Assembly (NCBI GenBank): GCA_964355955.1 | Contig: CAYHFQ010000002.1 | Location: 2,338 to 66,337 of the forward strand | DNA: 64,000 bases | Origin: an uncultured Gammaproteobacteria bacterium | GTDB taxonomy: Bacteria; Patescibacteriota; Patescibacteriia; UBA9934 | Direction: 5' to 3' | In this document: positions 35,468-56,043 of the stretch, in pieces | How the letters are laid out: every line of letters begins with the position of its first letter | Numbering within the stretch: the first letter of the stretch is position 1 | Notes under the pieces: generated by a model | Seen by the model: only the letters and a program-made list of their open reading frames with translations | What the model was told of the DNA's origin: nothing | Databases searched by the model: none | Program-made: the position numbers and the translations under genes

Positions 35468-35522
35468 GGCCTGCACGAGCGACAATAAAAAATCACCTCA
35501 CCGGACGCTTTCTCGCGTCACG
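35468..35522. terminator. bidirectional intrinsic terminator (fmt on plus, ABC exporter on minus)
   Basis: aaaaaatcacctc...gaggtgattttttttc: 9-bp outer stem, inner gacgc/gcgtc stem, A-tract 5' and T-tract 3'. Confidence 0.6.
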
Positions 35523-35540
35523 GGAGGTGATTTTTTTTCA

Positions 35541-37298
35541 TTACGGTAAGAACCCACCAGCTTGAATACTCCACAACTTCTTGTACGTCCCCTCATGCTG
35601 GATCAACTCTTCGTGCGTGCCAGCGTCGACTACAGCCCCCTTTTCGATGACCACAATGCGGTCCATCTGCATAATCGTACTCAAGCGATGCGCGATGACA
35701 ATCACCGTCTTACTCTTCATCAACTCATGCAAAGCGTCCTGAATAAGTGATTCGCTCTCGGAGTCAAGACTACTCGTCGCCTCGTCGAGTACCAGGATTG
35801 GCGCGTTCTTGAGAATTGCTCGAGCAATCGCCACGCGTTGCCTCTCACCACCAGACAGTTTAACGCCACGCTCACCAACCTTCGTGTCATAACCATGCGC
35901 CAGCTCCGAGATAAACTCATGACAATGGGCCTTCTTGCTGGCCGCAATCACTTCTTTGTCACTCGCATCACGCCGACCATAACGAATATTCTCCATCACC
36001 GTTCGATGAAAGAGCAACGAATCTTGCGGCACGAGCGATACCAGCGACCGCAAACTCTCCTGCGTCACTTTGCTAATATCCTGTCCGTCGATAGTAATCG
36101 CCCCCTTCGTCACGTCAAAGAACCGCATGAGCAGTTTGATCACCGTACTCTTCCCCGCCCCGCTCGGCCCAATGAACGCCACCTTCTCGCGTGGTTTAAT
36201 ATCAATCGTCAGATCGCGCAAAATTGGTTTACTCTCACTGTAACCAAACGTCACATTCTTAAAAGCAATTTCCCCCTTCTTAACCATGAGCTTCTTGGCC
36301 CCCTTTTTGTCGACTAATTCAAAAGGCAATTCCAATACGTCGACCATCTCTTTAGCGTCCGCAAAGCCTTCATAAACATCACGAATAACGCGACCAAAGT
36401 CCCACAAACGATTAAAAAGGCCAATCAAAGCAGCCTGAATAAGCGCGAAGTCACCCAAGGTAATTCGACCAAGAACATACAGGTGGATAGCAATATACAT
36501 CGCCACCGCGTTCAAAACCAACATGAAACCACCCTGCACGGCGTCGTTCACCGCCCCCAGGTTCCAGGTAAACGTCATCATCTTGCGCCACCTGGCGTTC
36601 ACCTCCACAAATCGTGTCTCCTCAAACTTTTTACCTACAAACTGCTGAATCGTCACAGCATTGCCAACAGCATCCGCCAACACGCCGCTCGCCTCAGTAT
36701 CCAACTGTGCCCGAATTAAGTCATACTTAAGCTTCCATTTGGCCACGAAGATATTGGCGATGATAAATAAGACCGCCCAAATACAAAGTATGCCCGCAAA
36801 CAACGGACTACGGAGATAAAAGATTATGATCGTACCAACAATCGCAACAACAATAGAAATCAGCTTCCAAGTGAACTGATCCATCAAGCGTTCGAAAGCG
36901 CGGCCAAAACGATGAATCTTCTTTACCAACGAACCAGCAAAGTTATCGGTAAAAAAACGATAGGAGTGACTGAGTAGATGACTAAAGGCCGTCTGCTCCA
37001 AATCAGCAATAATTTTTGGCTGAATATAATTATTGGTAACGCCGGCTAAGCGATGCAACAACCAAGAAGATGCGTTCACACCAACCATCAAACCCAAAAT
37101 ACCAAGCAAAGTCGCCGCTAACACCTCACCTGTTTGCCCGGTCGCGAATGCATCAAAAAACCTCTTACTCAGCAATGATGGTATTAGTTCTAAAACGTTC
37201 ACCCCCACCAGCACGAGCAACAAAAAACTCATGGACCACGGATACCGCTTAACGTGCTGCCAGTAAACTTTGATTGTTGAGTTGATAGATAATGACAT
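35541..37298 (-). CDS. ABC exporter, fused TMD-NBD (MsbA/type-I-exporter family)
   Basis: Six N-terminal TM helices, Walker A GPSGAGKST, signature LSGGERQRVAIARAIL, Walker B ILVLDEATS. Confidence 0.85.
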   Translation of the reverse strand: MSLSINSTIKVYWQHVKRYPWSMSFLLLVLVGVNVLELIPSLLSKRFFDAFATGQTGEVLAATLLGILGLMVGVNASSWLLHRLAGVTNNYIQPKIIADLEQTAFSHLLSHSYRFFTDNFAGSLVKKIHRFGRAFERLMDQFTWKLISIVVAIVGTIIIFYLRSPLFAGILCIWAVLFIIANIFVAKWKLKYDLIRAQLDTEASGVLADAVGNAVTIQQFVGKKFEETRFVEVNARWRKMMTFTWNLGAVNDAVQGGFMLVLNAVAMYIAIHLYVLGRITLGDFALIQAALIGLFNRLWDFGRVIRDVYEGFADAKEMVDVLELPFELVDKKGAKKLMVKKGEIAFKNVTFGYSESKPILRDLTIDIKPREKVAFIGPSGAGKSTVIKLLMRFFDVTKGAITIDGQDISKVTQESLRSLVSLVPQDSLLFHRTVMENIRYGRRDASDKEVIAASKKAHCHEFISELAHGYDTKVGERGVKLSGGERQRVAIARAILKNAPILVLDEATSSLDSESESLIQDALHELMKSKTVIVIAHRLSTIMQMDRIVVIEKGAVVDAGTHEELIQHEGTYKKLWSIQAGGFLP

Positions 37299-37321
37299 GG
37301 CGGGATTATAACACGAGCTAA

Positions 37322-40300
37322 CTATTTCACTCCAGCCGGAGTTACGCCAGACAAGAACCCAAAGTTATTGTTAGTACCGTCTCGATCCTGTACCTGGCCT
37401 AAGACAGACCTCATTCCTGCGGCATCATAAACAACAGCATGATCGTAATAGCCGGTATCAAGGTTAACCAGACCCTTCACATTCATGGACTTAGCGATTA
37501 CGGCCTCTTCATAAAGCGTCATCGGCTGTGAGAAGTCAATAATACCGAATGTGCCGTCTTTGAAAGTAGCTATTGCTCGACGCTTATCCCTAACATTACT
37601 CGAGTTTCCAGCCACTGCCAATTCCCCATCGTCGACCAATAGATGCCCAGACATCATATCGATTTTATTCTTTTTAGCTAAACTGAGTAGCGTTGAAAAA
37701 TCCTCCAAATTCTTACGGAAAGCCAATGGTTCTGCGGTCTCATTGCTATCCAAGTCATGTTTAGTTAGCTTATCACGGTTCACAATTATCATGTGTCCTT
37801 CAGCATCTACAATTACCGCGCCATCACGATTAGAAATTAGATAGTTCACCACACTTCCGTTGTCGATAGCTAATTCTGCCGGCTTCATAGCGCCTGTCGT
37901 GTAAGCACCGACGCTTTCCGCTACCAAGGCACCATCCGGGTAATTATCGCGCATAACCTGCTCAGTCAACCCACCGCCAACTTTGACTGTATAATCAACA
38001 GTCGCTCCCTTGCTTGGGTCGCCAATTACAACCGTAGCCAATTCTTTGCCATCAGTGCGCCAAGTTACCATTCTGAAACCAGCTTTGAGTTTCTTGGAAC
38101 TACGTCTTACCTCCGGCGTTATCGACGCCCATTCATCACGCATGACCCCTGCAGATAGTAATCGATCAAAACCTTTATTTAATACATATCCAAAATTACC
38201 ATCTTTTAAACTGCGGGTAGTCTTGCTAAGACTTCCCTCGGTAATTGGAATATTTGCCCCAGCATCTTGCAACTGAGCAATAATATCGGCCGCCCGCCTA
38301 TCACCAGTATCCGTCTCCAGGCCTTCGGTATTAAAAAATTCTAAGATTTTCTGCACCTGGAAAGACCCTAACATTGTGTACATACCAAGTACATCACTAG
38401 GTATGCCTCTACCATCAGCCTTTAAATAATTTTTGGCAAAAGTGGTTTTCTGGTTAATATTGTCCCAAGTCACCGGTTCACCGTCAATTGCCCTTGTCCC
38501 AACATCAATCAATATTTTGTCTCCCGCCGCCGCGTCAATAGCCGCATTTATTTTTTTACGAATATCTTCAACTTTAGAAATATCATTAACATCTATCCCT
38601 TGCGCTACTCCATGCCAATCAACTTGCTTCATGAATTCTGCCTCCAGAGTATTTGCAGCGTCTTTATTGATATCACGAATCAACGAGATCTTAGCCAGAC
38701 CCTGCGTAAACTCGGTAAAGTTGGCTGCTTTAGGCACGCTCACCTTAACAGTTGAATTAAATTGGCCCCTTCCCTCCTGCTGTCCAATGCCAAAGTTGAT
38801 AAATAATAGCTTGGCGTGTTCCGACTCTAGATTCTCGTCTGTAATGACATCAGCAAAACCGTAGACTTCGGTTGAATGTAAGGTATTGGCATAAGCCTGA
38901 GCCAAGCGAAAACCATTAATATTGGTCATTAACTTCAAGACGGCAGCTACGTCCGCCTCAGTCGAAGCGTTCATTTCTGTAGGAAATCCCTTAAAGTTTA
39001 GCTTACTAAAATAAAGTTCACCAGCATTTGTACCAAACTCCTGAGTTATATAGTTAGCCTGGGCCACTACCTCGTCCATGGTCTCCGGTGAGAGAGTAAA
39101 CTGCACGTTAGAATAATCAGCTCTTTCTGCTAATTTACTCATAAAACTCCGGTATTGGAAATACCCATACAATGGCTTGGTTTCCGCATCATACCGCGCC
39201 GAAAAAACCGGGAAACCGGAAAAATCTAGATGCTTAAGAATTTCACTCCTCGTCCTATCTGACTTAAACTGTCGCAATAACTCATCGATGTTTCTTAAAT
39301 CTTCTAATGACTTCGGCTGTTGCCAATTTCCCTCTAAGTGAACGTCCTCGTAGCCAGTAATTTTCAATCTATGCAAATTGCTCTCGAGAGAGGCAGTCTC
39401 TATAATTAAATTAATGTTATCTGCTTCCTTAAGATTATCTATCGTCCAATTAGTCGGATAACCAACTATCTTAACATTGATTCCGTCATCATACCTATTA
39501 ACTAAACTGGCCAGCAAAACCGTCGCAACGGGACTACTATTGATTTCCGCTAATGAAATTTGACCCTCAGATCTATGTTGCTTATCAACAGCGATAGCAA
39601 TATCACCTTTCACTAAACTAGGGTCATTCACTAAATACGCCATCCGTGCAGAATCATAGCCGGAAGATTGTTCAAGATCTTTGATCTTTTTAATTAGCTG
39701 AAAAAAATTATCATCAGTTACTACGCCGCCATAGAATTGCTCCCGAGCTTGCTTTAATAAAATAGCCTCAAGACCAACCTTCGGCTGAAAGTCTTCACTA
39801 TTTTTAATAGCCTTCAGAAAGTTCTCGTATTCTGGTAATCCTAAAGCGTCAAATTTAGGAAACGACGATGGATCAGCATTCTCAATATAGCGCGGGATTA
39901 AGGTTGCATAATAATCCTTAGAACCAACATCTTTTATTAAGGATTCTAACTGATTACCAATTTCTATAAACTGCTGCGGATTTTTAAAATCTAAGCCAGG
40001 AAATCCTTCAAAAGAGGCCGAGTTTAGCAAATGGGTGCCAATTTCAAAACTAAATTTACGGTCATCATAATGATCCCCTTGGAAATCATAATTCTGCGCT
40101 TTCGTAAGACCAAACTCCCAATACCCAATGTCATTAAGCTGCTTGGCAGCCGCCACAATATCTTTAGTGTATTTTTGATTAATTACGGTTGGGAACTCAT
40201 GCGGATCAAAAGTTAATGAATCAATATATTCATCGACTAAAAAAGAACTGTATCTAGCCCCATAATCATCTCTATCAGATTCTTGAACTGCTTTAAATAA

Positions 40301-41044
40301 AAAAGCTCTTAAGCGTGGTAAGTCTTTCTTGTGCAATTCATGAGGTAAATCCTTGAATTCAAAATGTTCAACTAAATTCGCCATCCCCCTACCCAACAAA
40401 TGCTGCATTTTTAAAAAATCAGTCTGACCGTCAATTTCAACGCTAGGTACACGCTGATTAGAATATTCCCTAGCCTGTCTGTACAGCAGCCCTTGAGCAC
40501 ATGTAGCTACATCGTTATACTCGACAATTTCTTCATGTTTTGGGTCTTTGATAACAATGTTATCAATAAACTTCCCCCAGGCTTCGCGTTCATCTAAATA
40601 TTGACGCAAGTCTTGCTCGTCTTTTAGTTCAACCGGTAGTCCATCTAATTTAAAGTGTTCTTCAAAAACGTAAGATAGTTCATTATTATCAAGCTTTGGA
40701 TAATAAGCATGAAGTTTTTTAATCAACTCAGGAATTCTCTCCCTCGTCACTGGTGTCGCCATCTCGCCGGCAAATTCTTTAACAAATTTAGCCTCTGCCT
40801 CGGCCCGCTCGTCAGTTACTTTGCTCGCTACTAATTCCAACTTTTTAAACGGTACATTCCTCTCCGCGAACTCTTCCGCTGTAGTTGCGTGCGGAGGAAC
40901 TGGATGTTCAATCTGGTTCCCTTCAGCCAAAGTCGTCAAACCGAGCAGAACGCCTTGCATCAGGCGACTCTTCCAGGTAAACCTAACTGGCTCTTTTCTC
41001 ACCTCAGGTGAATATCCACCTCTCTCACCATGGCCAAAACTCAT
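37322..41044 (-). CDS. giant hypothetical protein (1240 aa), paralog 1. Internal 'xxGFPxxxxxxxEAD' repeat modules. C-terminal ~330 aa resembles a phosphodiester-glycosidase (NAGPA-like) domain with a degenerate LDGGGS site
   Basis: No recognisable catalytic family in the N-terminal 800 aa. The C-terminus RRAIATFKDGTFGIIDFSQPMTLYEEAVIAKSMNVKGLVNLDTGYYD parallels the NAGPA-family pattern (R.A.G..dG.l.l..vdg...g.tl.ela.....ga.nAlNLDGGGS). An N-terminal hydrophobic segment (LMQGVLLGLTTLAEG) may be a signal anchor. Confidence 0.55.
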   Translation of the reverse strand: MSFGHGERGGYSPEVRKEPVRFTWKSRLMQGVLLGLTTLAEGNQIEHPVPPHATTAEEFAERNVPFKKLELVASKVTDERAEAEAKFVKEFAGEMATPVTRERIPELIKKLHAYYPKLDNNELSYVFEEHFKLDGLPVELKDEQDLRQYLDEREAWGKFIDNIVIKDPKHEEIVEYNDVATCAQGLLYRQAREYSNQRVPSVEIDGQTDFLKMQHLLGRGMANLVEHFEFKDLPHELHKKDLPRLRAFLFKAVQESDRDDYGARYSSFLVDEYIDSLTFDPHEFPTVINQKYTKDIVAAAKQLNDIGYWEFGLTKAQNYDFQGDHYDDRKFSFEIGTHLLNSASFEGFPGLDFKNPQQFIEIGNQLESLIKDVGSKDYYATLIPRYIENADPSSFPKFDALGLPEYENFLKAIKNSEDFQPKVGLEAILLKQAREQFYGGVVTDDNFFQLIKKIKDLEQSSGYDSARMAYLVNDPSLVKGDIAIAVDKQHRSEGQISLAEINSSPVATVLLASLVNRYDDGINVKIVGYPTNWTIDNLKEADNINLIIETASLESNLHRLKITGYEDVHLEGNWQQPKSLEDLRNIDELLRQFKSDRTRSEILKHLDFSGFPVFSARYDAETKPLYGYFQYRSFMSKLAERADYSNVQFTLSPETMDEVVAQANYITQEFGTNAGELYFSKLNFKGFPTEMNASTEADVAAVLKLMTNINGFRLAQAYANTLHSTEVYGFADVITDENLESEHAKLLFINFGIGQQEGRGQFNSTVKVSVPKAANFTEFTQGLAKISLIRDINKDAANTLEAEFMKQVDWHGVAQGIDVNDISKVEDIRKKINAAIDAAAGDKILIDVGTRAIDGEPVTWDNINQKTTFAKNYLKADGRGIPSDVLGMYTMLGSFQVQKILEFFNTEGLETDTGDRRAADIIAQLQDAGANIPITEGSLSKTTRSLKDGNFGYVLNKGFDRLLSAGVMRDEWASITPEVRRSSKKLKAGFRMVTWRTDGKELATVVIGDPSKGATVDYTVKVGGGLTEQVMRDNYPDGALVAESVGAYTTGAMKPAELAIDNGSVVNYLISNRDGAVIVDAEGHMIIVNRDKLTKHDLDSNETAEPLAFRKNLEDFSTLLSLAKKNKIDMMSGHLLVDDGELAVAGNSSNVRDKRRAIATFKDGTFGIIDFSQPMTLYEEAVIAKSMNVKGLVNLDTGYYDHAVVYDAAGMRSVLGQVQDRDGTNNNFGFLSGVTPAGVK

Positions 41045-41073
41045 ATGCGTTTATTATAACACGAATATTTTAT

Positions 41074-44000
41074 CTATTCCTGTGCGGTCTGATAGACCAT
41101 CGGCATACCTGTCAAAAAAGCAAACTTGTTATTCGTTCCATCCTGATCCTGTTGACCTAAGGCAAATAACATACCAGAAGCATCGTACACATTTGCATGA
41201 TCGTAATAACCAGTATCGAGGTTGACGAGACCTTTTACGTTCATCGACTTAGCAATAACCGCTTCCTCATACAGGGTCATTGGCTGCGAGAAATCTATCA
41301 AGCCAAAAGTGCCGTCCTTAAACGTCGCAATCGCCCGCCGCTTATCTCTGACGTTACTCGAGTTACTGGCTATAGCGAGTTCACCATTATCCACCAATAA
41401 ATGACCAGACATGACATCAATCTCGTTCTTGCGAGCTAACGTAAGTAGAGTCGAAAAATCCTCTAGCTTGTCGCGAAAAGCTAAATGATCAGCAGCCTCT
41501 TTACTATCCAGGTCATGCCTAGTTAGTTTATCGCGGTTAACGATATTCAAGGCCCCGTTGACATCAACAATCGCTAACCCATCGCGATCGGAAATTAAAT
41601 AGTTAACCACATAACCGTGGTTAATAGTTAACTCAGCTGGCTTCATCGCACCAGTCGTGTAAGCGCCCACGCTTTCGGCTACCAAGGCGCCTTCTGGGTA
41701 TTTGTCATGCATAACCTGTTCGGTTAACCCACCACCAACCTTCACGGTATAATCTACCGTCGCTCCTTTAGCTGGATCGCCTATCACCGCCTTCGCCAAC
41801 TCCTCACCATTATTTTTCCAATTAACAAAAGTATACCCAGCCTTAAGTCGCTCGGTTCGAGTTTCAAAAATAGGCGTAATACCCTGCCATTCTGGCCGCA
41901 TAACGTCGGCTGCTGCCAACTTGTTTTCAATTTTGCTCCAAATATAAGCTGGGTCACCCATGCTCCGCCAAGCCTTTTGCCAACTGCCCTCAGTCACAGG
42001 GATATTAGCTCCTGCCGCTTGCAAACGCTCAATAGTTTCCGCTACTCGGGCGTCACCTGTATCTGCGGCCAAGCCTTCAGCGTCAAAGAACTCTAAAATC
42101 TTCCGCACTTCAAAAGATCCCAACATCTTATAGACGCCTACTACATCTGGGTCTATACCGTATTGTTCAGCCTGTAAATAATGCTCAGCAAAAGTAATTT
42201 TTTTCTCCATTGTCAGCCAACTGACAGGTACGTTAGCGATATCTCTAATACCGACCTCCACAACCAGTCCGTCCCCTGCTGCAGCATCGATTGCCAAGTT
42301 AATATTCTGGCGTACCGACTCCACGGCCTCGATATTATCGATATCAACACCCTTGGCAACTCCTACCCAGTCTACTTGAGATAAAAATTTTTGCTTCAGC
42401 TCTTCCGCTACCTTATTATCCAAATCTTGCACTAACCCAATTTTCGCCAGGCCAGCAGTAAACTCGGCAAACGTTGTGGCTAGTGGAATAGAAACTTCAA
42501 ATTTTGGCTTTATTCCAGAATATCGAGTCTCTGGCGTAGAACCTATGCCGTAATACACTAATAATCTCTTAGTATTTTCATGCTCTAAATTCTCATCAGT
42601 AATAATTGGGGCGAAAGTATAAAGATGATCAGAATGTAGAGTTTTAGCATAACTACTGGCCAAATCTTCCTGAAAACTATTAATAAATAGTTTTAGAGTA
42701 GCGGCCACATCAGCTTCGGTTTTTTCATTAACTTCTTGTGGAAAGGCAGCAAAAGTTAGTTTGTTCAAATAGCCCCTAGCCTCACCAGTTCCAACAACAT
42801 CTACTAAATAGTCAAACTGCCGTTTTATTTCTGGTAGATTATCGGGAGTTACCGCAAAAATACAGTCAGAGAAGTCGGCTCGTTCCACTAAGCCCGGGCC
42901 GAACCAGCGACTGACCAGAGAGCCACGTTTTAATATGTTGGCCTTGTAACTTGCCGAAAAGACTGGAAATTTTGAATAATCAAGATGTCTAACAATTATT
43001 CGTCCAGTTCTTTCGTGCTCTTTTAAAATTGCCGCCAGATTCTCTAGATCATGCCAAGTTCTGGGCTGACTCAGTTCACCCTCAAACTTCACGTCACGAT
43101 AATTACTGGACCCGATGTCAATTTGGCTACCTAATAAATCAACAGCCTCGATTGCTTTCTCGATTTCCGTAATGTTTTCTAAAGTCCAAACCATCGGGAA
43201 GCCATTTAAGGAGATTTTATCCGGAATTCTGTAATTAAAAAATTGGTGAAAAAAGGCTTTACCTGTTGGGCTCTTTTCTACTTCTTGTAGTGCTAGTTCA
43301 CCAGGCAGCTTATGTTCAGCAGCAAGCGATAAGGTTAAGTCACCTCGCCAATGAGCAACTGGAGCCATCAAGGAAACGAGAAGTTCCGGTTCAACATCTG
43401 ACTCGGCATCAAGTCTAGCTAACTCAGCCAAGACAGTCTCTAAATTTTCAGGCGTTATATCCCCCAATTGCGCTTGGCGTCGAATAATCCTTATTAATTC
43501 GTTTCTTGTATTATCTCGATCCCAGGCAAAATCAATATTATTATCAAATTCAATAAAGAAAGTTTGATACGTTTCCAAGCCTGCAGTATTAAGTTCAGGG
43601 AAATTTCTTGTTTCAGCTAAATCTACAAAATGTGACGCCAGACTTGACCGATAAATCGTTGAACCAGCAGACTTACCGAGATCAGTCAAAATTCTAACAG
43701 TGTCCGCAAATTGCTCAGGGTGGTGAAAATCTAATGGATTAAAACCCTCAAATGTTGAACTCCTAAGTAGTTGATGGCCTAATCCAAAACTGACAGGAGC
43801 ATCTTTATTCACCCAATCACCATCTTGAATATCTAATGATTTGCTAATCCCATTCTTATAAAAGCTTATTTGGTTCAACTGTTTAGCGGCCGCTAAACTA
43901 TCTGCTGAATCATCCTTGTGGATGACTGTCGGAAATTCAGCTGAATCGAAGGTTAATGTGGCAATATATCTATCTAACAAAGCAGTCGTACAAGCATCGT

Positions 44001-44691
44001 CAACATGGTTCAATGCGCCACCACGACGAACCGCCTCCAATAAAAACGAACGTAAGCGTGGTAAATCACGCTTGTGAATTATATGCGGTAAACCTGCAAA
44101 TTCTATTTCTTCCACGCGTCGTAACTGATCGTCAACGGTTTCTACCTGCAACTGATAAAAATCTTCTTTGTCTCTAACTACTAGCTTAGGAATAGGACTC
44201 TTTTGGTAAGTATGTTCATGTTCATACAAGACGCTGAGCAACCATGAATCCTCCGACTTTTCAAAAATTTTCTTCCACGACTCGTGAGTTGCGAGATATT
44301 GACGAAAATCTTGCTCATTTTTTATTTTCTCGGGAAAACCGGCTAATTTGAATTGTAGTATGAAATCAGTGGGTATAGTGTCGTGAGGAGTGGCGAAAGA
44401 TTGAAGCTTTTTATCCAAAGCTGGCAACTGGTCAGCCGTAATCGGAGATTGTAATTCAACGGCAAAAACACGCTTGAATTCTTCACCTCGTTCAGCTAAA
44501 TCTTGAGCCGCTGGATTCGCGCCCACTTCACTTATTTTCACTAATGGCTCAGAACGCGCTGCAAATTCAGCTGTGGAAGTTTCACTATAGCCATCTGGTA
44601 CGTCCAACCGCTCTCCGGCAGCCATCGTCGCCAGACCAAGCAAAGCGCCCCGCATCAACCGGCTACCTCCCTCCCCTTGGCCAAACTTCAT
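41074..44691 (-). CDS. giant hypothetical protein (1205 aa), paralog 2 (tandem duplicate of 37322-41044)
   Basis: Same architecture. N-terminus MKFGQGEGG vs MSFGHGERGG. The C-terminal 350 aa are about 75% identical to paralog 1. The 29-nt gap to paralog 1 contains TATAAT. Confidence 0.55.
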   Translation of the reverse strand: MKFGQGEGGSRLMRGALLGLATMAAGERLDVPDGYSETSTAEFAARSEPLVKISEVGANPAAQDLAERGEEFKRVFAVELQSPITADQLPALDKKLQSFATPHDTIPTDFILQFKLAGFPEKIKNEQDFRQYLATHESWKKIFEKSEDSWLLSVLYEHEHTYQKSPIPKLVVRDKEDFYQLQVETVDDQLRRVEEIEFAGLPHIIHKRDLPRLRSFLLEAVRRGGALNHVDDACTTALLDRYIATLTFDSAEFPTVIHKDDSADSLAAAKQLNQISFYKNGISKSLDIQDGDWVNKDAPVSFGLGHQLLRSSTFEGFNPLDFHHPEQFADTVRILTDLGKSAGSTIYRSSLASHFVDLAETRNFPELNTAGLETYQTFFIEFDNNIDFAWDRDNTRNELIRIIRRQAQLGDITPENLETVLAELARLDAESDVEPELLVSLMAPVAHWRGDLTLSLAAEHKLPGELALQEVEKSPTGKAFFHQFFNYRIPDKISLNGFPMVWTLENITEIEKAIEAVDLLGSQIDIGSSNYRDVKFEGELSQPRTWHDLENLAAILKEHERTGRIIVRHLDYSKFPVFSASYKANILKRGSLVSRWFGPGLVERADFSDCIFAVTPDNLPEIKRQFDYLVDVVGTGEARGYLNKLTFAAFPQEVNEKTEADVAATLKLFINSFQEDLASSYAKTLHSDHLYTFAPIITDENLEHENTKRLLVYYGIGSTPETRYSGIKPKFEVSIPLATTFAEFTAGLAKIGLVQDLDNKVAEELKQKFLSQVDWVGVAKGVDIDNIEAVESVRQNINLAIDAAAGDGLVVEVGIRDIANVPVSWLTMEKKITFAEHYLQAEQYGIDPDVVGVYKMLGSFEVRKILEFFDAEGLAADTGDARVAETIERLQAAGANIPVTEGSWQKAWRSMGDPAYIWSKIENKLAAADVMRPEWQGITPIFETRTERLKAGYTFVNWKNNGEELAKAVIGDPAKGATVDYTVKVGGGLTEQVMHDKYPEGALVAESVGAYTTGAMKPAELTINHGYVVNYLISDRDGLAIVDVNGALNIVNRDKLTRHDLDSKEAADHLAFRDKLEDFSTLLTLARKNEIDVMSGHLLVDNGELAIASNSSNVRDKRRAIATFKDGTFGLIDFSQPMTLYEEAVIAKSMNVKGLVNLDTGYYDHANVYDASGMLFALGQQDQDGTNNKFAFLTGMPMVYQTAQE

Positions 44692-44700
44692 ATAGCCCCA

Positions 44701-46185
44701 TTATACCATGCTCTTCAACACCCGATAAATCTCCACCATCGCCCAGGTATCGAGGGCACAGTAGTCGAGCAAGTCGCGTTTAATCTTCTCCTTGTCACTG
44801 GCTGACGTCGACGGAGATATAAGCTTCTCCCAGCGCTCACTCGCTTGGTCACCCTTACTGATATTCATCACCGAATAATTCAACGATGGTACTAAGACTG
44901 GCAAAACCTTTTTAATACTGGCACTCCCCTTAAAAGCCGGGTCGACGTAATAGCCATCAGAAAAAATCGTCATCAAGTCGAACATCTTGTCATTGATTTC
45001 TTTCAAGAACGCTGCATGCTCAGGGTGCAGTTCGGCGAGTTTGTCATTCCGTTGCTTCTCATAACTGCTATACCAACTAATCACCGTCCCATTCGGATCG
45101 AGGTCCTTCTTCATCCGTTCAATCAGCGGCAACGTCAAATCTCCCTCCGGCTCAGTTATAAGAAACTCGCGATGTTCTATCTCCCCATCTGCTCCCATAA
45201 TGTGCAAACTGTACTGGAAAGGAATCTGCTCATACGCCCCAAAGCCGTCAAACATCGGAATAGCGCTACTGTATCCCTCGTAATCAAAGAACTGGAGTGG
45301 AAACTGCAAGCCGTCTAACGCTTCTTTAATCGCGCCATGATCGATTATCGCCTTGCCGAGCACATAAGACTCATACTGCAACTTCTGCGCCACGTTCAAG
45401 TCCTCGGGATTATGAATGTCGGTCAGCGCTAACTCCCCGCGGTCCACCCAATCAATCAACTTCTTCTTGCTCATGCCAATCCGGTTAAAGTTATGCACGG
45501 AATATGCCGGCACCTCTGGATTAGAATAACCAAAGGTGGAGCACTGATTACTCCGTCCCTCGTACACGCAAGCGCAACCTTTGCTCTCCGGCATTTCCAA
45601 ACACTCTTTCATCTGCATCATCTCCCCCTTTACCTGTTCTTCCGCCGCTATCACCTCCCCCGTCAAATCAGCTTCGATGAATAACTCACAATTCACCACC
45701 TTGCCGTTTTTACGATATTCACGATTCAAATGAATAACGCCGGTCTTAACTACTTTCACCCCACACGCTTCAATGACAATCTTCTGAAAGGCCAAGTCGT
45801 TGACGTGGTGATGCGGCACTTTACGCTTCACCTCATTCGTCGCCTTCACCTCCCACAATTCCCAAGAATCGAGCTCGGTATTGAACTTCAAAATATCCGC
45901 CCGCAAATAAAACACATCGCTCTGAAACGTCGCCTGAAAAATCGTCTGCTTCTCCTCAATGGCCTTCTTGGTATCTATCACCGCCTGGCCATGATGACTC
46001 TCAATCAGCACTCCCTCAGGATACAGCAGCCGACACGCCGCCTCCGCCAAGTTACCATCCTCAATAATCTTCTTCTCAAAGTCGCTAAACTCCACGTCCG
46101 CAAACAACTCTGGCTTATGCTTCCGCAGCCACAGGTTCTTCTTACAAAAAGTGTATTCGAGGTAATCGGTTTTGGTGATGAGCAT
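44701..46185 (-). CDS. Cas4/RecB-like PD-(D/E)XK nuclease with Cys cluster fused to a C-terminal DEDD-like exonuclease-type domain (DUF2779-like architecture)
   Basis: N-terminal C...ADIL...ELWEVKAT (D/ExK), Cys cluster GCACVYEGRSNQC, C-terminal FFDYEGY...DTWAMVEIY. Ends 9 nt before giant paralog 2. Confidence 0.5.
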   Translation of the reverse strand: MLITKTDYLEYTFCKKNLWLRKHKPELFADVEFSDFEKKIIEDGNLAEAACRLLYPEGVLIESHHGQAVIDTKKAIEEKQTIFQATFQSDVFYLRADILKFNTELDSWELWEVKATNEVKRKVPHHHVNDLAFQKIVIEACGVKVVKTGVIHLNREYRKNGKVVNCELFIEADLTGEVIAAEEQVKGEMMQMKECLEMPESKGCACVYEGRSNQCSTFGYSNPEVPAYSVHNFNRIGMSKKKLIDWVDRGELALTDIHNPEDLNVAQKLQYESYVLGKAIIDHGAIKEALDGLQFPLQFFDYEGYSSAIPMFDGFGAYEQIPFQYSLHIMGADGEIEHREFLITEPEGDLTLPLIERMKKDLDPNGTVISWYSSYEKQRNDKLAELHPEHAAFLKEINDKMFDLMTIFSDGYYVDPAFKGSASIKKVLPVLVPSLNYSVMNISKGDQASERWEKLISPSTSASDKEKIKRDLLDYCALDTWAMVEIYRVLKSMV

Positions 46186-46192
46186 AATGAAA

Positions 46193-47191
46193 TTAATCGA
46201 TCAACTTTTTAATCTGCTTTTCAAAGTCCGACTCAATTGGCTGTGTTTTATTGAACATCTCATATTCAGATAATGCCTTTTTCTCAGCCGTAGCCATACT
46301 TACCACACCTTTATTCTTCAACACCTTAAACTTGTTAAAAGCTAAGAAATTACCAATACTCTCGGCAAACTCCTTCATGGTTAAAGTCTGTTCCTGTTCA
46401 ATCAAGTTTTCGACATAGTCAAAGTAGTTAGTTATCGTTCGCTCTAACCTCTTGATATCCTTCTCGGCTAAATAATTCTTAGCCACCACGACATCCGACG
46501 GCAACACCCGACCATCTGGACTATTCTTCCAACTCGTTAACCCCATATGCTTCTTGTTCCTATCGACCTTACTATGGATAATCTCCGCCGCCGTCTGACC
46601 AGTAATCGCAAAATGGAATAGGTTTTGTACGGTCGCAAAAAATGCTCGAGTCGTAGGTGACTTGGGATCATAGTCAACACTACACTCCGAAAATATATCC
46701 GTGATCTGCAAATACACCCTACGTTCACTCGCCCGAATCGACCGAACTCTCTCCAGCAACTCTCTAAAATAATCCTTACCAAATACTTCCTTACCCTGTT
46801 TCAACCTCTCATCATCCATGGCGAAACCTTTAACCACATACTCCTGCAGCACCCTTGTCGCCCATATCCTAAACTGTGTCGCCTGCACAGAATTCACCCG
46901 GTATCCAACGGAAATAATGGCGTCGAGGTTATAGAACTGAGTTTCATATTCCTTGCCATCAGCGGCAGTTATTCGAATTTTTCGAATAACTGCTTTTTCG
47001 CTTAACTCAGCAGTTTTAAACACCTCTTTAAGGTGATAATTGATAGTATTTGCCTCCACGCCAAATAACTCCGCCATCATCTTCTGCGTCAACCACAAAG
47101 TTTCCCCCTCTACCCGCACCTCAAACCTAACCGCTCCACTTGGGGTGGTGTAGAGGATAAAAGGGGTCAAGTTTGATTTTTCTTTAGCCAT
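46193..47191 (-). CDS. RhuM-family protein (virulence-protein RhuM family)
   Basis: N-terminus FILYTTPSGAVRFEVRVEGETLWLTQKMMAELFGV...YNLDAIISVGYRVNSVQATQFRIWATRVL matches the conserved RhuM N-domain. 332 aa. Confidence 0.75.
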   Translation of the reverse strand: MAKEKSNLTPFILYTTPSGAVRFEVRVEGETLWLTQKMMAELFGVEANTINYHLKEVFKTAELSEKAVIRKIRITAADGKEYETQFYNLDAIISVGYRVNSVQATQFRIWATRVLQEYVVKGFAMDDERLKQGKEVFGKDYFRELLERVRSIRASERRVYLQITDIFSECSVDYDPKSPTTRAFFATVQNLFHFAITGQTAAEIIHSKVDRNKKHMGLTSWKNSPDGRVLPSDVVVAKNYLAEKDIKRLERTITNYFDYVENLIEQEQTLTMKEFAESIGNFLAFNKFKVLKNKGVVSMATAEKKALSEYEMFNKTQPIESDFEKQIKKLID

Positions 47192-47258
47192 ATCTCAATC
47201 CTCAATATTAACCAGAAAATTAGCCCTTATTTACCGCTCAGTTAAATATATTGTACTA

Positions 47259-47287
47259 AAAATGGACCCCTAATTCAAGCTAAATAA
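47259..47287 (-). promoter_or_regulatory. near-consensus sigma70 promoter reading into RhuM, DUF2779, the two giant proteins and the ABC exporter
   Basis: On the minus strand: TTGAAT, 17-bp spacer, TACAAT. A GAGGA RBS lies 6 nt before the RhuM ATG. Confidence 0.6.
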
Positions 47288-47311: not shown

Positions 47312-47800
47312 CTATAACTCCACATACTCCTCAACCGCCGTATCCTCCTGACTATACGCCATATCATCATCCTCGCTCTCACTCTCCCCACTACCCTGCC
47401 ACCCAGCGGCCAGCTGAGCTGGTCCCGCTACGCCCCTACCCAGCCCCTGAACACACTGTTCCTTAACTGCCCGCTCTGCCCACACTCTAAACCTATTCGC
47501 TAACCCCGGATTACTCCTATACCCAACGGCCAGTATCGCCTCCAAACTATAACTCTTAACCTCATAGTTCTTCCCATCCCTCGCAGTTATCCGGTTTTTC
47601 CGGACAACTGTATTCTCGCTAATCTCACCACCTTTAAACGCATTCTGTAAATGCTCGCTGACTGTTTTGATACTAATGCCGAACACCTCTCCTATTTCCT
47701 TTTGGGTGAGCCAGACGGTGCAATCCTCAACTCGTACATTAAAACGAATTGAACTGTTAGGTATTGCGTAGACAGCAGACTTAGGCTCAGAGGCAATCAC
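47312..47800 (-). CDS. stand-alone RhuM N-domain paralog with an acidic tail (truncated RhuM-like protein)
   Basis: AVYAIPNSSIRFNVRVEDCTVWLTQKEIGEVFGI...YSLEAILAVGYRSNPGLANRFRVWAERAV is about 50% identical to the N-domain of 46193-47191. The C-terminus is Glu/Asp-rich. Confidence 0.65.
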   Translation of the reverse strand: MIASEPKSAVYAIPNSSIRFNVRVEDCTVWLTQKEIGEVFGISIKTVSEHLQNAFKGGEISENTVVRKNRITARDGKNYEVKSYSLEAILAVGYRSNPGLANRFRVWAERAVKEQCVQGLGRGVAGPAQLAAGWQGSGESESEDDDMAYSQEDTAVEEYVEL

Positions 47801-47803
47801 ACT

Positions 47804-49654
47804 CTACAAAGCTAATCGACTCTTAAAAAACTCTCTTACATTCTCATCCACAAAATAAACATAACACCCCTTCATCCCACGAGTCATTAAGATCTTGTAT
47901 ATATTACGAACGTATTTATTAAGTTGATCTGGATTATTCTTCAGCGACTTCTTGCCGCTAGCATCTTTGTAAGAAGTCCAATTAGTTTTATATTCAAGTG
48001 TCTCTGAATCAAACTTCAAGTCACCGCCAACTATCACGCCCACATAATCAAACTCTAAGCCCTGTGACGTATGAATGCAGCCAACCTGGTCGAGGCCTCG
48101 AGGATCTATCGCCCAGGTAGTACCAACCTTACGAGAGTTCCAAGGCATTCTAAAATCGTGGCTCATTATCTCGACGTCAGCAACACCTCCATCAGCGTTG
48201 CCATCACGAATGGGCGTCCACTTCCAAGCATAACCAGCCACTATACGAGCGCTGTTACCTTCTGCCGATTTATCTTTAATAGCATCCCTAAGAGCATGCG
48301 GATCATCAAAGATTTGAAAATCAAAAGCCATCTTGTCCCAGCCATTAAAATTAGCTGTGGACTTGAGGTGTAAAACATCATTCAACCAATTGATATAACC
48401 TTCAGCTCCAGAACATCTGAATTGAGCAACTAAATCAACCGTATGAACTTTGGCACTAAATAGTTCTGCAACTCTGATTATTTCCTTTACTGTACCAATA
48501 TCTTCCGGTCTAATCGCCTGATCATCATCAACAAAGAATATACTTGTCTTAGCTGCCTTCACGATATCTTCTACTTGGTTTTGTCCGTAATATTGGTACG
48601 CTGTTTTATTCTTAAGACGATGAGCTTCGTCGACAATAACCACATCAAACGTGTCAGGCAATGCATCGACAAAACCAGCCGAACCCTTAAACAAATTCTT
48701 TAGACGGTTCTTCTTGTGCTCCTTGGCCAGTTTGTGAACGATTGTATCGCGAAATGAGGCGTTAGGAGCTACAAAGATGGTATTGAGCTCGTTCTTAAGC
48801 AATCCGCCAAGCAGATTGACTGAGATTACAGACTTGCCAGTGCCTGGGCCACCCTTAATAATTACTACTGATTTCTCCTTATTAGTTAGTGCTACCGAAC
48901 GAGCAGTCTCATAAGCCACCTTTTGCTCATCCAATAAAATAAACTCCTGGTTACCGCTAAACATACCAGCGACATGGTCAATCAACTTCTTGCTTGGCTT
49001 AATCTTACCGTATTCTATTTCGTAGAGAATCTCCTCGCCGTTACCTTTTCCAACATACTTCTTAAGAAACTGCTCGAGCTTAACCTGATCATTTTTGAAA
49101 TAAATAGGCGTCTCTTGAACTAACTCCTCATAAATACCGGTCGACAACGGCTCAGGCGAACGCTTTTCAAAATTATGTAGATAAGCGCAAGAAAATGGCG
49201 TCAGGTCCTTGGAATCAATATTCTCATTATAATCCTGTAAAAAATGCTTATAAGATTGGGCCTGATAGGATGGATGCGGCGTATCCCTAACTCCACCACC
49301 AAGATAGGTGCTCACAACTCCATCCTTCTCAGTTGCCTCAGCTGACTCCCACTGTTTGAGCTCGACTAAAATAAAGTTCTTGTTACCCTCTTCGTCATGT
49401 CCAGAAACGAAAAAGTCGATTCGGTTCGAGGTAGCAGGAATTACATACTCAATCAGAACTCCACAGCTCAGGTCCAGCTCGGCTTTTCGCACAACCCTCT
49501 CCATATACTGGAGCGAGTTCTCCCATGCTCGGCGTTCACTCGGAGCAACACGTCTCCCTAACATCCGCTGAAATTGCCCCTCAATAATCGGTGCAATCAT
49601 GTTCGAGTCGACGTCCTCTCTAAATCCGCCAATGGTGCTCTTATATAGAAACAT
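47804..49654 (-). CDS. DUF2075-type protein: N-terminal PD-(D/E)XK-like nuclease domain, P-loop ATPase, UvrD-C-like domain (defence-island ATPase-nuclease)
   Basis: RIDFFVSG...ILVELKQW (nuclease-like), Walker A GGPGTGKS, Walker B VVIVDEAHRL, C-terminal TSQGLEFDYVGVIVG (UvrD_C-type). Confidence 0.7.
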   Translation of the reverse strand: MFLYKSTIGGFREDVDSNMIAPIIEGQFQRMLGRRVAPSERRAWENSLQYMERVVRKAELDLSCGVLIEYVIPATSNRIDFFVSGHDEEGNKNFILVELKQWESAEATEKDGVVSTYLGGGVRDTPHPSYQAQSYKHFLQDYNENIDSKDLTPFSCAYLHNFEKRSPEPLSTGIYEELVQETPIYFKNDQVKLEQFLKKYVGKGNGEEILYEIEYGKIKPSKKLIDHVAGMFSGNQEFILLDEQKVAYETARSVALTNKEKSVVIIKGGPGTGKSVISVNLLGGLLKNELNTIFVAPNASFRDTIVHKLAKEHKKNRLKNLFKGSAGFVDALPDTFDVVIVDEAHRLKNKTAYQYYGQNQVEDIVKAAKTSIFFVDDDQAIRPEDIGTVKEIIRVAELFSAKVHTVDLVAQFRCSGAEGYINWLNDVLHLKSTANFNGWDKMAFDFQIFDDPHALRDAIKDKSAEGNSARIVAGYAWKWTPIRDGNADGGVADVEIMSHDFRMPWNSRKVGTTWAIDPRGLDQVGCIHTSQGLEFDYVGVIVGGDLKFDSETLEYKTNWTSYKDASGKKSLKNNPDQLNKYVRNIYKILMTRGMKGCYVYFVDENVREFFKSRLAL

Positions 49655-49669
49655 ACACGATAAATTCTT

Positions 49670-50719
49670 TTAAATACGTGATAATCTTTTTAATACATTT
49701 TGATACTTACTGATAAATTCACCAGTCTCATAAGGTTCACCCGAATAGAACATATCCTTATCCACGTTATAATCTTCTGAAAGCTGCAATGCGTTGCGTA
49801 AACTCTTCATGACACCCTTATCTACCTCTTCACCCTGTTTAATTTTGTTTGCAGATAGATGATACGATAAGGTTTGATGCCTTTTAAAAAATTTATTTCC
49901 GTTCGTTATTGTTCTTTCAAAACACTCAGTTTGGTTATTATATATACAATTAAAATTACGTAGAATACGAGTAAGTTTCATTAAAGTTACTGGTCGTTGA
50001 CCTTTTTTCATTATTTTAGCATTTTTTACAATCCAAAGCGCGAGATTATATATCACACCATCCTCACTCAAACCGTTATCGTGTTGAGCGATCTTCATTG
50101 AAATTTGGAATAATTCGTCATCATTACATATTAAAGAAACATGATGTCGGTCAAGAAAAACTAGAAGAGAGACGAGGGCGGATCTCTTATTACCATTATG
50201 GAATGAATGGTTATTTGAGATAGCATACATTAATGCAGCCCCAGATGTTTCTACAGTTGGATATTTGTAATTATATCCAAATGATGTTTGAGGGTGAAAA
50301 ACAGCAGACTCTAACAAGTTAATATTCTTAATACCGTCAGGAGAAATAGGATCCTCTGATAGCGCGGCATCCTTCGCTAATTCAGAGTGAATGGCGATAA
50401 TCTCAGAAGTAGTCAGATAAACAGGCTCGTCTAATCTCTTGCCTATAGTAGAATAATCGAAATACTCTACTTTAGCATTTTTCTTGGCTTCTTTTCGCGT
50501 CAAAGAAATATCTGCAGGATTTACATTAGATATAGTTTTTAGGATAAAAGCTAAATGCTTCTGCCTGATTACACTATTTCGATTAATTAAATAATCAAAC
50601 TTATCACTGCTAGCGCCAAGATCCCAAAGCAATATTAATAGATTATCAGGGTCGATGTTATAATTTCTTGCAATTCGGCCAATTGTTCTTTTTGTCGATT
50701 TCATATTTTGCATTCTCAA
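49670..50719 (-). CDS. Fic/Doc-family protein with a Doc-type active-site motif (HSFHNGNKRSALV), flanked by extra N- and C-terminal regions
   Basis: HxFx(D/N)GNKR is the Doc-class signature of the Fic fold. 349 aa. Very AT-rich codon usage. Confidence 0.7.
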   Translation of the reverse strand: MRMQNMKSTKRTIGRIARNYNIDPDNLLILLWDLGASSDKFDYLINRNSVIRQKHLAFILKTISNVNPADISLTRKEAKKNAKVEYFDYSTIGKRLDEPVYLTTSEIIAIHSELAKDAALSEDPISPDGIKNINLLESAVFHPQTSFGYNYKYPTVETSGAALMYAISNNHSFHNGNKRSALVSLLVFLDRHHVSLICNDDELFQISMKIAQHDNGLSEDGVIYNLALWIVKNAKIMKKGQRPVTLMKLTRILRNFNCIYNNQTECFERTITNGNKFFKRHQTLSYHLSANKIKQGEEVDKGVMKSLRNALQLSEDYNVDKDMFYSGEPYETGEFISKYQNVLKRLSRI

Positions 50720-50720
50720 C

Positions 50721-51071
50721 CTATAACTCCGTATACTTCACCGCACTCCCCTTACTCTTCTCCACCGGATACTTCTCCCCATTCTTCGCCAGTTTGCGTT
50801 CGAAGGCGTCACTCAGGTCAATCCCTAAGTCATGCGTCATGAGGAGTACCCAGTAGAATACGTCCGCCAGTTCGTCCGCCACGTCGGCCTTGTGCTCCGC
50901 GAGGTACTTGGTCAAAGCATCGCCATTCCGCCACTGGAAGTGTTCAAGTACCTCTGTGGCCTCTAGTTGGAGCGAAATAGCGCAGTCCTTGGGATTATGA
51001 AACTGCCGCCAATTCCTAGCGTCGCGAAAGGAGGTGACGAGGGCGGTCAGTTCGGCGATGGATTTAGGCAT
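50721..51071 (-). CDS. MazG-like nucleotide pyrophosphohydrolase (YpjD-type, all-alpha NTP-PPase)
   Basis: WRQFHNPKD...SLQLEATEVLEHFQW...ELADVFYWVL...GIDL...KYP, the EExxE/D motifs of small MazG proteins. Starts 1 nt after the Doc gene stop. Confidence 0.8.
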   Translation of the reverse strand: MPKSIAELTALVTSFRDARNWRQFHNPKDCAISLQLEATEVLEHFQWRNGDALTKYLAEHKADVADELADVFYWVLLMTHDLGIDLSDAFERKLAKNGEKYPVEKSKGSAVKYTEL

Positions 51072-51181
51072 ATGTTGTGGATAAGTTGACTTTTACTCAA
51101 ATATACACTATTCTAACACATGTAAGCCCTCGGGTTTGCCCGATTTTGATCAAGATCCGTCCCTCGGGGCGGATCTTTGAG

Positions 51182-51781: not shown

Positions 51782-51797
51782 AATCCAGATCCATCTT

Positions 51798-51858
51798 ACA
51801 CCATTTTCGTGATATCACGAAAATGGTGTGTCGGTATGTTCCAATCTGGAACATACCG
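51798..51858. promoter_or_regulatory. two strong palindromes just upstream of NYN: a 32-bp perfect palindrome acaccattttcgtgat|atcacgaaaatggtgt and cggtatgttcca-atc-tggaacataccg
   Basis: Read directly. The first starts 17 nt upstream of the NYN start codon. Confidence 0.6.
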
Positions 51859-52030: not shown

Positions 52031-52041
52031 AATTATTTGCT

Positions 52042-56042: not shown

Positions 56043-56043
56043 A

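Follow-up and report, generated by a model that had tools for sequence, protein, structure and literature searches.

A mosaic of genes rather than a single system: two giant, probably surface-exposed proteins with NAGPA-like ends in a Candidate Phyla Radiation bacterium

In this study, a run of five minus-strand genes was analysed within a window of 64,000 nt (64 kb), the window being the whole stretch of DNA under analysis (contig CAYHFQ010000002.1, positions 2,338 to 66,337); all coordinates below are positions in it. The genes encode a full-length RhuM protein, a DUF2779 protein, two giant proteins (giant B and giant A) and an ABC exporter, and an earlier sequence-only reading had taken them for one undescribed functional system. 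We conclude, with a probability of roughly 0.6, that the run is a mosaic and not one system, and that the giants are an inserted, separately promoted pair, likely binding or cleaving a glycopolymer at the cell surface. The five genes (defined by the list of open reading frames, ORFs, and by Pfam) and the terminator behind them are:

46193-47191, minus strand: full-length RhuM
44701-46185, minus strand: DUF2779 protein
41074-44691, minus strand: giant B, 1205 aa (1193 aa, from Met13, in some assemblies)
37322-41044, minus strand: giant A, 1240 aa
35541-37298, minus strand: ABC exporter
35487-35536, no strand: bidirectional intrinsic-terminator hairpin with an A run and a T run at its flanks, between the convergent genes for ABC and Fmt

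One line of evidence comes from the comparison with related genomes. The five-gene synteny was absent in every relative compared: giant homologs were found without the other genes, and ABC orthologs without the giants. No RhuM, DUF2779 or ABC gene lies beside a giant homolog at the loci L004, L005, L007, L008, L018 and L023, and none of these loci holds a tandem pair; the five-gene arrangement is thus unique to this strain. The ABC gene, by contrast, can be followed through a series of relatives (percentages refer to the ABC protein), and the polysaccharide cluster that accompanies it is also present in the window:

L016/L017, ABC 69%: Wzx-GT4-GT2-GT2-Wzy-ABC-...-fmt-def-priA-LigB...ClpB (GT, glycosyltransferase)
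L022, ABC 79%: ...Wzy-DUF2779-ABC-ABC2-fmt
L021, ABC 90%, the closest relative: end of a RhuM-fragment-like gene, 24 nt, DUF2779, 7 nt, ABC, fmt-def-priA
L014/L015, ABC 79%: an island of type III restriction-modification, DUF3800, RhuM fragment and HTH-SocA genes, then DUF2779 and ABC
genomic context of P0016, ABC 84%: glycosyltransferase directly before ABC
52868-58573 of the window, minus strand: Wzy-GT2-GT2-GT4-Wzx polysaccharide cluster, the same as in L016/L017

Since the L016/L017 cluster is the one found at 52868-58573, the ancestral order is Wzx-GT4-GT2-GT2-Wzy-(DUF2779)-ABC, convergent with fmt-def-priA. Two additions have been made to it in the window genome: a defence island (~46.2-52.9 kb) and a block that carries both giants and sits at the exact start of ABC. 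This block is missing in L014, L021 and L022, where DUF2779 adjoins ABC:

37297-44691 (~7.4 kb), minus strand: inserted block with giant B, giant A and the second copy of the -10/ATG junction (breakpoints from blastn)

In the blastn comparison with L021, which lacks both the giants and a full RhuM, positions 189-1684 of the relative correspond to 46187-44692 of the window and positions 1668-4397 to 37313-34508. Because these two L021 intervals overlap, a 17-nt promoter segment, TGGTATAATGCGGCT-AT, can be placed at both ends of the 7.4-kb block, and it aligns at both borders. In L021 the stop codon of DUF2779 lies inside the element TGGTATAAT, which is followed by 6 nt and the ATG of ABC; in the window this element stands 8 nt ahead of the giant B start codon. 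The element that precedes ABC in the relative therefore precedes giant B here. The full RhuM gene and its promoter region form an extra ~1.1 kb relative to L021, and they are regarded as a separate addition, since the RhuM fragment gene of L021 runs straight into DUF2779. No match to Rfam or to a tRNA was obtained in scans of the window, and hence no tRNA integration site. A phage or viral origin of the giants was also considered and rejected (no match in tblastn searches of 50,697 phage records, and none in a scan of IMG/VR).

The giants and ABC also appear to be separately promoted. The following promoter-like elements were recognized:

44700-44708, minus strand: extended -10 box TGGTATAAT, overlapping the DUF2779 stop codon and ending 8 nt before the ATG of giant B
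41053-41061, minus strand: extended -10 box TGTTATAAT, 8 nt before the ATG of giant A
37305-37313, minus strand: extended -10 box TGTTATAAT, 6 nt before the ATG of ABC, without a Shine-Dalgarno sequence
29965-29973, plus strand: extended -10 box TGGTATAAT, 8 nt before the ATG of ORF 29982-31349
47250-47278, minus strand: sigma-70-like TTGAAT-17-TACAAT site (9/12), ~58 nt upstream of RhuM

The junction sequences contain no Shine-Dalgarno motif at giant B, giant A, ABC or ORF 29982, whereas RhuM has one (GAGGA) beside its distant -35/-10 pair. Since giant B, giant A and ABC lack a ribosome-binding site and have a TGnTATAAT box 6-8 nt ahead of the ATG, each of them would be transcribed from an extended -10 promoter of its own into a leaderless or near-leaderless mRNA. 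The sequence TGNTATAAT occurs six times in the 64 kb (1.8 expected), and at four of these six sites the hexamer lies 12-14 nt upstream of the ATG of a long ORF (P ~ 1.7e-11, a rough positional estimate); the full extended consensus is found at the start of only 4 of the ~44 genes of the window. The -10/ATG arrangement before ABC is kept in four other genomes, as TGGTATAAT-N6-ATG in L014, L022 and L021 and as TGCTATACT-N6-ATG in L016/17. The prediction of one ~11.7-kb transcript, for which internal promoters had been named beforehand as contrary evidence, is not supported, given the boxes before giant B, giant A and ABC. The "near-perfect" promoter placed at 47259-47287 lies in fact at 47250-47278 and matches 9 of the 12 consensus positions, and sites of this grade occur at chance frequency (38 seen against 33.6 +/- 5.8 in shuffled sequence).

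Two observations on the same signal may be added. ORF 29982-31349 (plus strand) encodes a 455-aa protein with no Pfam match on record and has the same leaderless-type start as the giants and ABC, which suggests that the arrangement is a more general expression signal in this genome. The ABC start is called in two ways on identical sequence in different assemblies (585 or 563 aa), and the 585-aa version is the likelier one, since the conserved -10 box lies 6 nt ahead of the upstream ATG. A literature search on leaderless expression in the Candidate Phyla Radiation (CPR) returned nothing useful.

The ABC protein is a half-transporter built of a transmembrane domain and a nucleotide-binding domain; Pfam gives ABC_membrane and ABC_tran only and, in agreement with what had been seen by eye, no C39 peptidase domain. 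Its best NCBIfam matches are MsbA-related and fall below the equivalog cut-offs (TIGR02203, 389.6 vs 602; TIGR02204, 392.6 vs 780.4). CPR bacteria are not known to make lipid A. Homologs are abundant (7987 of 8000 scored candidates at E<=1e-50), and the best 120 matches listed are 51-90% identical, many of them labelled Ca. Uhrbacteria or Patescibacteria. The protein is a conserved core gene product of this Uhrbacteria-like CPR lineage, encoded in relatives at the end of a Wzx/Wzy cluster, and we infer that it works with a polysaccharide or lipid-linked-glycan pathway and not with the giants. The sequence-only reading had offered the hypothesis that it exports the giants or their product. This was not borne out: many giant-free genomes keep the ABC gene, giants are also encoded where no ABC gene adjoins them, and the giants bear a signal-like N-terminus of their own. 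Of the usual marks of ABC-dependent secretion (a dedicated, co-occurring ABC protein, a C39 or other specifying domain, partner genes) none was found; there is no membrane-fusion-type gene in the region, and the giants have no RTX or other C-terminal secretion repeats, Pfam giving NAGPA only and the C-terminus being a globular NAGPA fold. The organism belongs to the CPR and its genome measures at least ~1.09 Mb, because the giant protein is found on a 1.09-Mb contig and the ABC orthologs are labelled Uhrbacteria or Patescibacteria. Three metagenome contigs from different samples, which also encode it, are >=99.99% identical to the window. The strain is present in the samples ERR3856787, SRR4754859 and ERZ27287891.

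The giants themselves are tandem duplicates, as had been proposed, and their N-termini (MSFGHGERGG and MKFGQGEGG) are as previously read; the identity of the last 350 residues, given as ~75%, was measured at 71%. Overall they are 46% identical, with 34% over residues 1-600 and 79-86% in the NAGPA-like domain. Even in this domain the third codon positions at identical residues are saturated (~0.45), which, together with the 79-86% identity, points to an old duplication, no gene conversion and strong purifying selection on both C-terminal heads. Gene conversion between the tandem copies was rejected as an explanation on the same ground, the synonymous positions being saturated in an 80%-identical domain. 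This pattern of selection fits a head domain that would be functional, not decaying.

The N-terminal 960 aa were used as a profile to search 1.84 billion representatives exhaustively (E<=1e-3), and 13 proteins were recovered in total: the two window giants, five full-length-like relatives (P0004-P0008), P0009, which is repeat-rich and without the C-terminal module, and P0010-P0014, which share only the region from ~residue 770. This search was relied on because word-indexed searches (with giant A and with the C-terminal 280 aa) returned only the query itself and one 159-aa fragment and missed even the paralog. A C-terminal alignment scan located five loci among 185,579 species genomes, where a first scan with N-terminal patterns had given no match. 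Three loci were found in JGI metagenomes. The genes that neighbour giant homologs are:

L004 and L018: UvrD and type IV pilus genes
L005: tpiA, gyrA
L007: pyrB, pyrC, pyrD (pyrimidine synthesis)
L008: rplU, recR
L023: gyrA, the same locus as in L005

A second ~1200-aa ORF near P0006 in L005 was considered as a paralog and proved unrelated. These results show that the giant family is very rare and, as far as its members are labelled, confined to ultra-small episymbiont lineages, the full-length members being found in CPR. The C-terminal module alone, with an identical NLDTGYYD, is present in two metagenome-assembled genomes (MAGs) labelled Micrarchaeota (29-30% identity), which hints at cross-domain sharing among ultra-small episymbionts. 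In these MAGs (L012:7751-11095 and L013:2752-3795) the module follows a different helical N-terminal region, and one neighbour encodes an archaeal-type LonB lid. Family members are also carried by L009 and L010 (CAYPRR01 and CAYMXY01), both titled "uncultured Gammaproteobacteria bacterium"; given the other hosts of the family and contigs that are small and dense in housekeeping genes, the label may be wrong.

Each giant ends in a NAGPA-like domain:

37340-38122, minus strand: NAGPA/DUF2233-fold domain of giant A, ~aa 975-1235
37445-37459, minus strand: D1196-T-G-Y-Y1200 loop of giant A, equivalent of DGGGS
41203-41217, minus strand: D1159-T-G-Y-Y1163 loop of giant B, equivalent of DGGGS

The Pfam scores are marginal (PF09992; 28.0 and 26.8 bits, the cut-off being 25), and among the relatives P0004 (27.6) and P0007 (39.4) pass on the same profile, while P0006 (17.7) and P0008 (23.1) remain below it. 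The head has the three-dimensional fold of NAGPA/DUF2233 proteins, and an AlphaFold2 model of residues 590-1240 of giant A (predicted local distance difference test, pLDDT, 73.9) shows a helical part and, after it, a beta-rich domain. Neither half of the giants gave a significant match in profile searches of PDB sequences. The conserved block RRAIATFKDGTFG...NLDTGYYD is as quoted in the sequence-only reading, and its proposal of a NAGPA-like C-terminus with the catalytic LDGGGS replaced by LDTGYY is upheld by the Pfam match and by the loop itself. In local alignments of hidden Markov models (HMMs) to 6pki and 5h3k, not significant in themselves (E 0.49-0.94), the Asp of DTGYY aligns with that of DGGGS. 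Within the family, the motif DTGxYD is constrained: D, T, G, the second Y and the following D are invariant in 11 sequences, and DTG(Y/M/S)YD is found family-wide.

In NAGPA proteins, from the human to the bacterial ones, the DGGGS loop is strictly invariant and cradles GlcNAc-1-phosphate, with D286 of the human enzyme as the catalytic residue; the substitutions D286A, G288A, G289A and S290A abolish activity (PMC13474241). In the giants the invariant DGGGS is D-T-G-Y-Y and an Asp is present at the position of D286. Read against the alignments, the head thus shows an Asp kept at the putative catalytic position and the phosphate-cradling GGGS replaced with TGYY, and it is unlikely to be a canonical GlcNAc-1-phosphodiester glycosidase.

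The remainder of the giants consists of an N-terminal segment and a long body. Giant A is laid out as a basic and hydrophobic N-terminus, an alpha/beta-helical body, a helical domain X (~aa 770-960) and the NAGPA-fold C-terminus, and giant B has the same architecture. The segment in giant A is:

40919-40969, minus strand: residues 26-42, SRLMQGVLLGLTTLAEG, hydrophobic segment that follows a basic stretch and resembles a signal peptide or anchor

In all family members a basic stretch is followed by a hydrophobic segment of 13-15 residues (SRLMxxxLxGL...G-D/E), and there is no other hydrophobic segment. In the AlphaFold2 model of giant A it forms a lone helix (residues 24-40) within the low-confidence N-terminal 77 residues. 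Classic signal peptides are found at the start of P0010 and P0013, distant bearers of the same C-terminal module, and the structural neighbour 6ozd is named "putative exported protein". To our knowledge, the characterised and solved proteins of the NAGPA fold are all extracytoplasmic. The giants would thus be exported or membrane-anchored via the basic and hydrophobic N-terminal segment.

Residues 1-600 of giant A were modelled as a mixed alpha/beta body (pLDDT 73.5, predicted template modelling score 0.65; AlphaFold2). That the first ~800 aa belong to no recognizable family, as had been stated, agrees with the profile searches of Pfam, NCBIfam and PDB, which yielded no relative of the N-terminal body; it matches only generic helical bundles, and a viral structure library contained no phage or viral structural relatives of the giants. 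The repeated ~100-aa modules that had been described around an F..GFP motif stood in part: the motif F-x-G-[FL]-P recurs ~6-7 times per giant, but self-BLAST detected no significant internal repeats. An HMM built from the arrays of the relatives defines a module of ~45-48 aa (Y..xLDFSxFPxxVSxxxxxEI...G...A..Y) of which F-x-G-F-P is the core. It forms tandem arrays in P0009 (15 HMM hits) and in the L009 protein (8), has no Pfam match and is degenerate in the window giants (sequence E 3e-7 and 2e-6, with 1-2 marginal domain hits each). P0009 (L023:6357-10772) and L009:11-4177 consist largely of tandem LDFSxFP modules, and P0009 lacks the NAGPA-like end, yet lies at a gyrA-adjacent locus, as does P0006 in L005. 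We infer that this long body of unplaced modules acts as a stalk or spacer.

Taken together, these data can be arranged into a scenario. The ancestral Wzy-(DUF2779)-ABC locus would have gained a defence island between Wzy and DUF2779, and the 7.4-kb block with both giants would have been placed exactly at the ABC start, after which giant B, giant A and ABC would each be transcribed from their own promoter. The giants would be exported or anchored by the N-terminal segment, with the body as a stalk and the NAGPA-like head at its tip; the head would most likely bind a sugar-phosphate-type envelope glycopolymer, or cleave one with altered specificity, and this polymer could be the host's or the cell's own, and ABC would serve its polysaccharide or lipid-linked-glycan pathway. 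A wider and more tentative proposal, which we hold to be distinctly less probable, is that the giants represent an undescribed cell-surface family of ultra-small episymbionts, in which an LDFSxFP stalk carries a DTGxYD head that recognises or cuts phosphodiester glycopolymers of the host wall, in host attachment or wall processing, and which is spread horizontally as "promoter + leaderless ORF" cassettes.

Several points weigh against the mosaic interpretation and the role proposed for the giants. Loss of the block in three relatives, instead of a gain here, is formally possible. The GC content at third codon positions (GC3) is 0.38-0.39 in the giants and 0.57-0.62 in the flanking genes; in every relative examined, however, the GC3 of the family lies 0.07-0.12 below that of its neighbours, against ~0.2 here. 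As low GC3 is in part a family trait, composition alone is no proof of recent transfer and was set aside as such, so that the choice between gain and loss is guided mainly by which genomes have the block and by the duplicated junction. Read-through co-transcription is possible, given that there is no terminator between the genes and that the leaderless promoters are predicted from position and conservation; upstream read-through into the giants and ABC is possible, not required. The hydrophobic segment, at 13-15 residues and with a mean Kyte-Doolittle value of 1.1-1.8, is short and of moderate hydrophobicity. The Tyr substitutions might indicate that the head has a new activity, serves for binding only or has nothing to do with glycans, and the taxon labels of several MAGs are provisional ("uncultured Gammaproteobacteria" for L009/L010, Micrarchaeota for L012/L013).

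The alternative that the five genes are one ~11.7-kb operon and a new system, with ABC as exporter of the giants (or of their product) and with a defence or mobile function for RhuM and DUF2779, draws on the layout of the locus. The five ORFs are on the same strand and tightly spaced, as had been noted, although the gaps measure 23, 29, 9 and 7 nt (7-29 nt) and not 1-29 nt. The one strong terminator follows ABC: it is real, lies at 35487-35536 and not at the 35468-35522 first assigned to it, and is very stable (dG -34.6 kcal/mol, z -7.45, equalled by 0 of 200 shuffles in RNA folding), whereas internal terminator-like sites are all weak, lie within coding sequence and occur at chance (14 against 13.1 expected). 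The same-strand run extends, however, beyond RhuM to the RhuM N-terminal fragment, the SLFN-like helicase, Doc, MazG-like and NYN genes upstream; three positionally conserved -10 boxes interrupt it, and its gene order is not conserved in the relatives compared. With ABC conserved in many giant-free genomes, giant homologs never neighbouring ABC, RhuM or DUF2779, neither a C39 domain nor a membrane-fusion partner gene in the region, and the closest relative devoid of giants and full RhuM, a single operon is very improbable.

Nor is it probable, if slightly less far-fetched, that the giants are cargo of the defence island, acting as large anti-phage or anti-mobile-element effectors with RhuM, DUF2779 and the helicase. 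They do border a variable island with many PADLOC matches (RhuM PDC-S05, Fic SoFic/PDC-S04, AbiO/Nhi-like helicase), differ in presence among close relatives and are atypical in composition; on the other hand, they have no PADLOC match and no phage or viral relatives, their homologs occupy stable housekeeping loci (gyrA in two genomes) and not defence islands, and the signal-like N-terminus and extracytoplasmic-type fold oppose an intracellular role on nucleic acids. That fold and N-terminus bear also on the view of the giants as cytoplasmic scaffolds, in which the N-terminal stretch would be an amphipathic or interaction helix and the NAGPA-like domain a non-enzymatic ligand binder. The weakness and shortness of the only hydrophobic segment, the generic helical-bundle matches of the body and the altered catalytic loop would suit such proteins, but the order basic, hydrophobic, G-D/E is conserved in the family members of alignment A3, P0010 and P0013 with the same C-terminal module have classic signal peptides, and the known proteins of this fold and the name of 6ozd speak for export; we consider scaffolds unlikely. 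Only a little closer to plausibility, and still unlikely, is that the giants actively hydrolyse glycan phosphodiesters and so remodel the cell's own Wzx/Wzy surface polysaccharide, their location being a functional link to the polysaccharide locus and ABC, not to RhuM and DUF2779. Insertion inside a polysaccharide-synthesis locus, the fold of sugar-1-phosphodiester glycosidases (PMC13474241), the Asp at the catalytic position and the strong purifying selection agree with it. Yet no relative's giant adjoins a polysaccharide cluster, close relatives with the same cluster have no giants, and GGGS is replaced exactly where single substitutions kill NAGPA activity. An inserted, separately promoted pair of surface proteins in a mosaic locus is therefore the reading we prefer.

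RhuM (E 9.5e-103) and DUF2779 (E 3.7e-38) were identified by Pfam, and both sit within a defence-flavoured region, in line with the defence flavour first ascribed to them. The DUF2779 protein has a weak Cas4/RecB-like N-terminus (weak NCBIfam TIGR03491; weak PADLOC Cas4, E 1.1e-5) and is encoded directly upstream of ABC in four related genomes. Its gene is 86% identical at the nucleotide level to the L014 and L021 copies, against 71-76% for the adjacent ABC-fmt and 80-81% for priA-ClpB; it is either unusually conserved or recently exchanged among these strains. Full-length RhuM belongs to the PADLOC candidate single-gene defence family PDC-S05, while PADLOC-DB v2 gave no match for the giants and only generic ATPase similarity for ABC. 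Beyond RhuM lies the rest of the island:

47312-52914, mixed strands: remainder of the variable defence island between Wzy and DUF2779 (Pfam/PADLOC)

It comprises genes for a RhuM N-terminal fragment, an SLFN-g3/DUF2075 AbiO/Nhi-like helicase, Doc/Fic (GC3 0.28), a MazG-like protein (named from a precomputed Pfam match on the identical L001 gene), NYN (GC3 0.34) and a plus-strand Fic protein (SoFic/PDC-S04). The RhuM fragment (47312-47800, minus strand, 162 aa) is 49% identical to the first 112 aa of full RhuM, and in L021 the end of such a fragment gene stands directly before DUF2779. The island stretch is absent from L016/17 (Wzy, then ABC) and L022 (Wzy, then DUF2779), and in L014 this spot is taken by another island, one with a type III restriction-modification system; the Wzy-DUF2779 site looks like an integration hotspot. 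Elsewhere in the window, positions 6313-12048 (plus strand) encode a polymorphic toxin of 1911 aa, in which SpvB, FG-GAP, DUF6443 and RHS repeats are combined with a nuclease domain at the C-terminus (Tox-GHH, HNH/EndoVII). It is overlapped just downstream by ORF 11999-12652, which could be its immunity gene, and the GC content just after the toxin is 0.39-0.45 (low-GC stretch at ~12-16 kb).

The supposed five-gene system thus resolves into ordinary parts, namely an ABC gene of a polysaccharide locus, a conserved DUF2779 gene, a RhuM gene of a defence island and an inserted gene pair, and the only unusual parts are the altered fold of a sugar-phosphate enzyme and the unplaced front half of the giants. 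Very few CPR surface proteins have been given a role, and host recognition by episymbionts is poorly known; a rare family with a strongly constrained head, altered at the very loop by which the enzyme family is defined, and up to ~950 residues without a sequence or fold match is a tangible candidate for interaction with the envelope or with host glycans. Cassettes of an "extended -10 box + ATG", which are duplicated where the insertion begins and ends, offer a testable example of leaderless gene expression and shuffling in a CPR genome.

Finally, the locus can be set beside known systems. The window ABC protein resembles MsbA/PglK-type half-transporters (type IV ABC exporters), which are linked to the export of glycans or lipids, in its domain build, in its MsbA-related best matches and in that its relatives close a Wzx/Wzy polysaccharide cluster; it differs in scoring far under the equivalog cut-offs, and no link to the giants was seen. 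Leaderless mRNAs have reportedly been mapped genome-wide in Mycobacterium tuberculosis (PMC3898074). In such mRNAs the -10 box lies immediately before the start codon. The TATAAT-type box 6-8 nt before the ATG and the missing Shine-Dalgarno sequence are common to both cases, the start sites having been mapped there, whereas the junctions described here are known from sequence.

With the NAGPA/DUF2233 proteins (PF09992: the human uncovering enzyme; BACOVA_00430, 3ohg; Slr0280, 5h3k; BPSS2145, 6ozd) the giants share a marginal Pfam score, the D286-aligned Asp and the "R...G...(N/A)LD" strand-loop pattern. They differ in the loop (D-T-G-Y-Y instead of DGGGS), in a similarity to the solved members that is not significant, and in that the domain ends a ~950-aa N-terminal region without known relatives. 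In Bacillota, large extracellular "conflict" proteins combine NAGPA with TelC/lipocone and cell-wall-binding domains, and a part in conflicts between bacteria has been proposed for the NAGPA domains of large extracellular proteins (10.1101/2025.01.14.632903). The giants differ from these proteins in having no TelC, NlpC/P60, Ig or cell-wall-binding domains, an altered loop, unplaced N-terminal modules and a different occurrence (CPR and, by label, DPANN lineages). They resemble them as large, modular and probably extracytoplasmic proteins with a NAGPA-type domain and variable N-terminal regions, and the conflict role proposed for NAGPA proteins would, by analogy, be compatible with a role of the giants at the host surface in an episymbiont.

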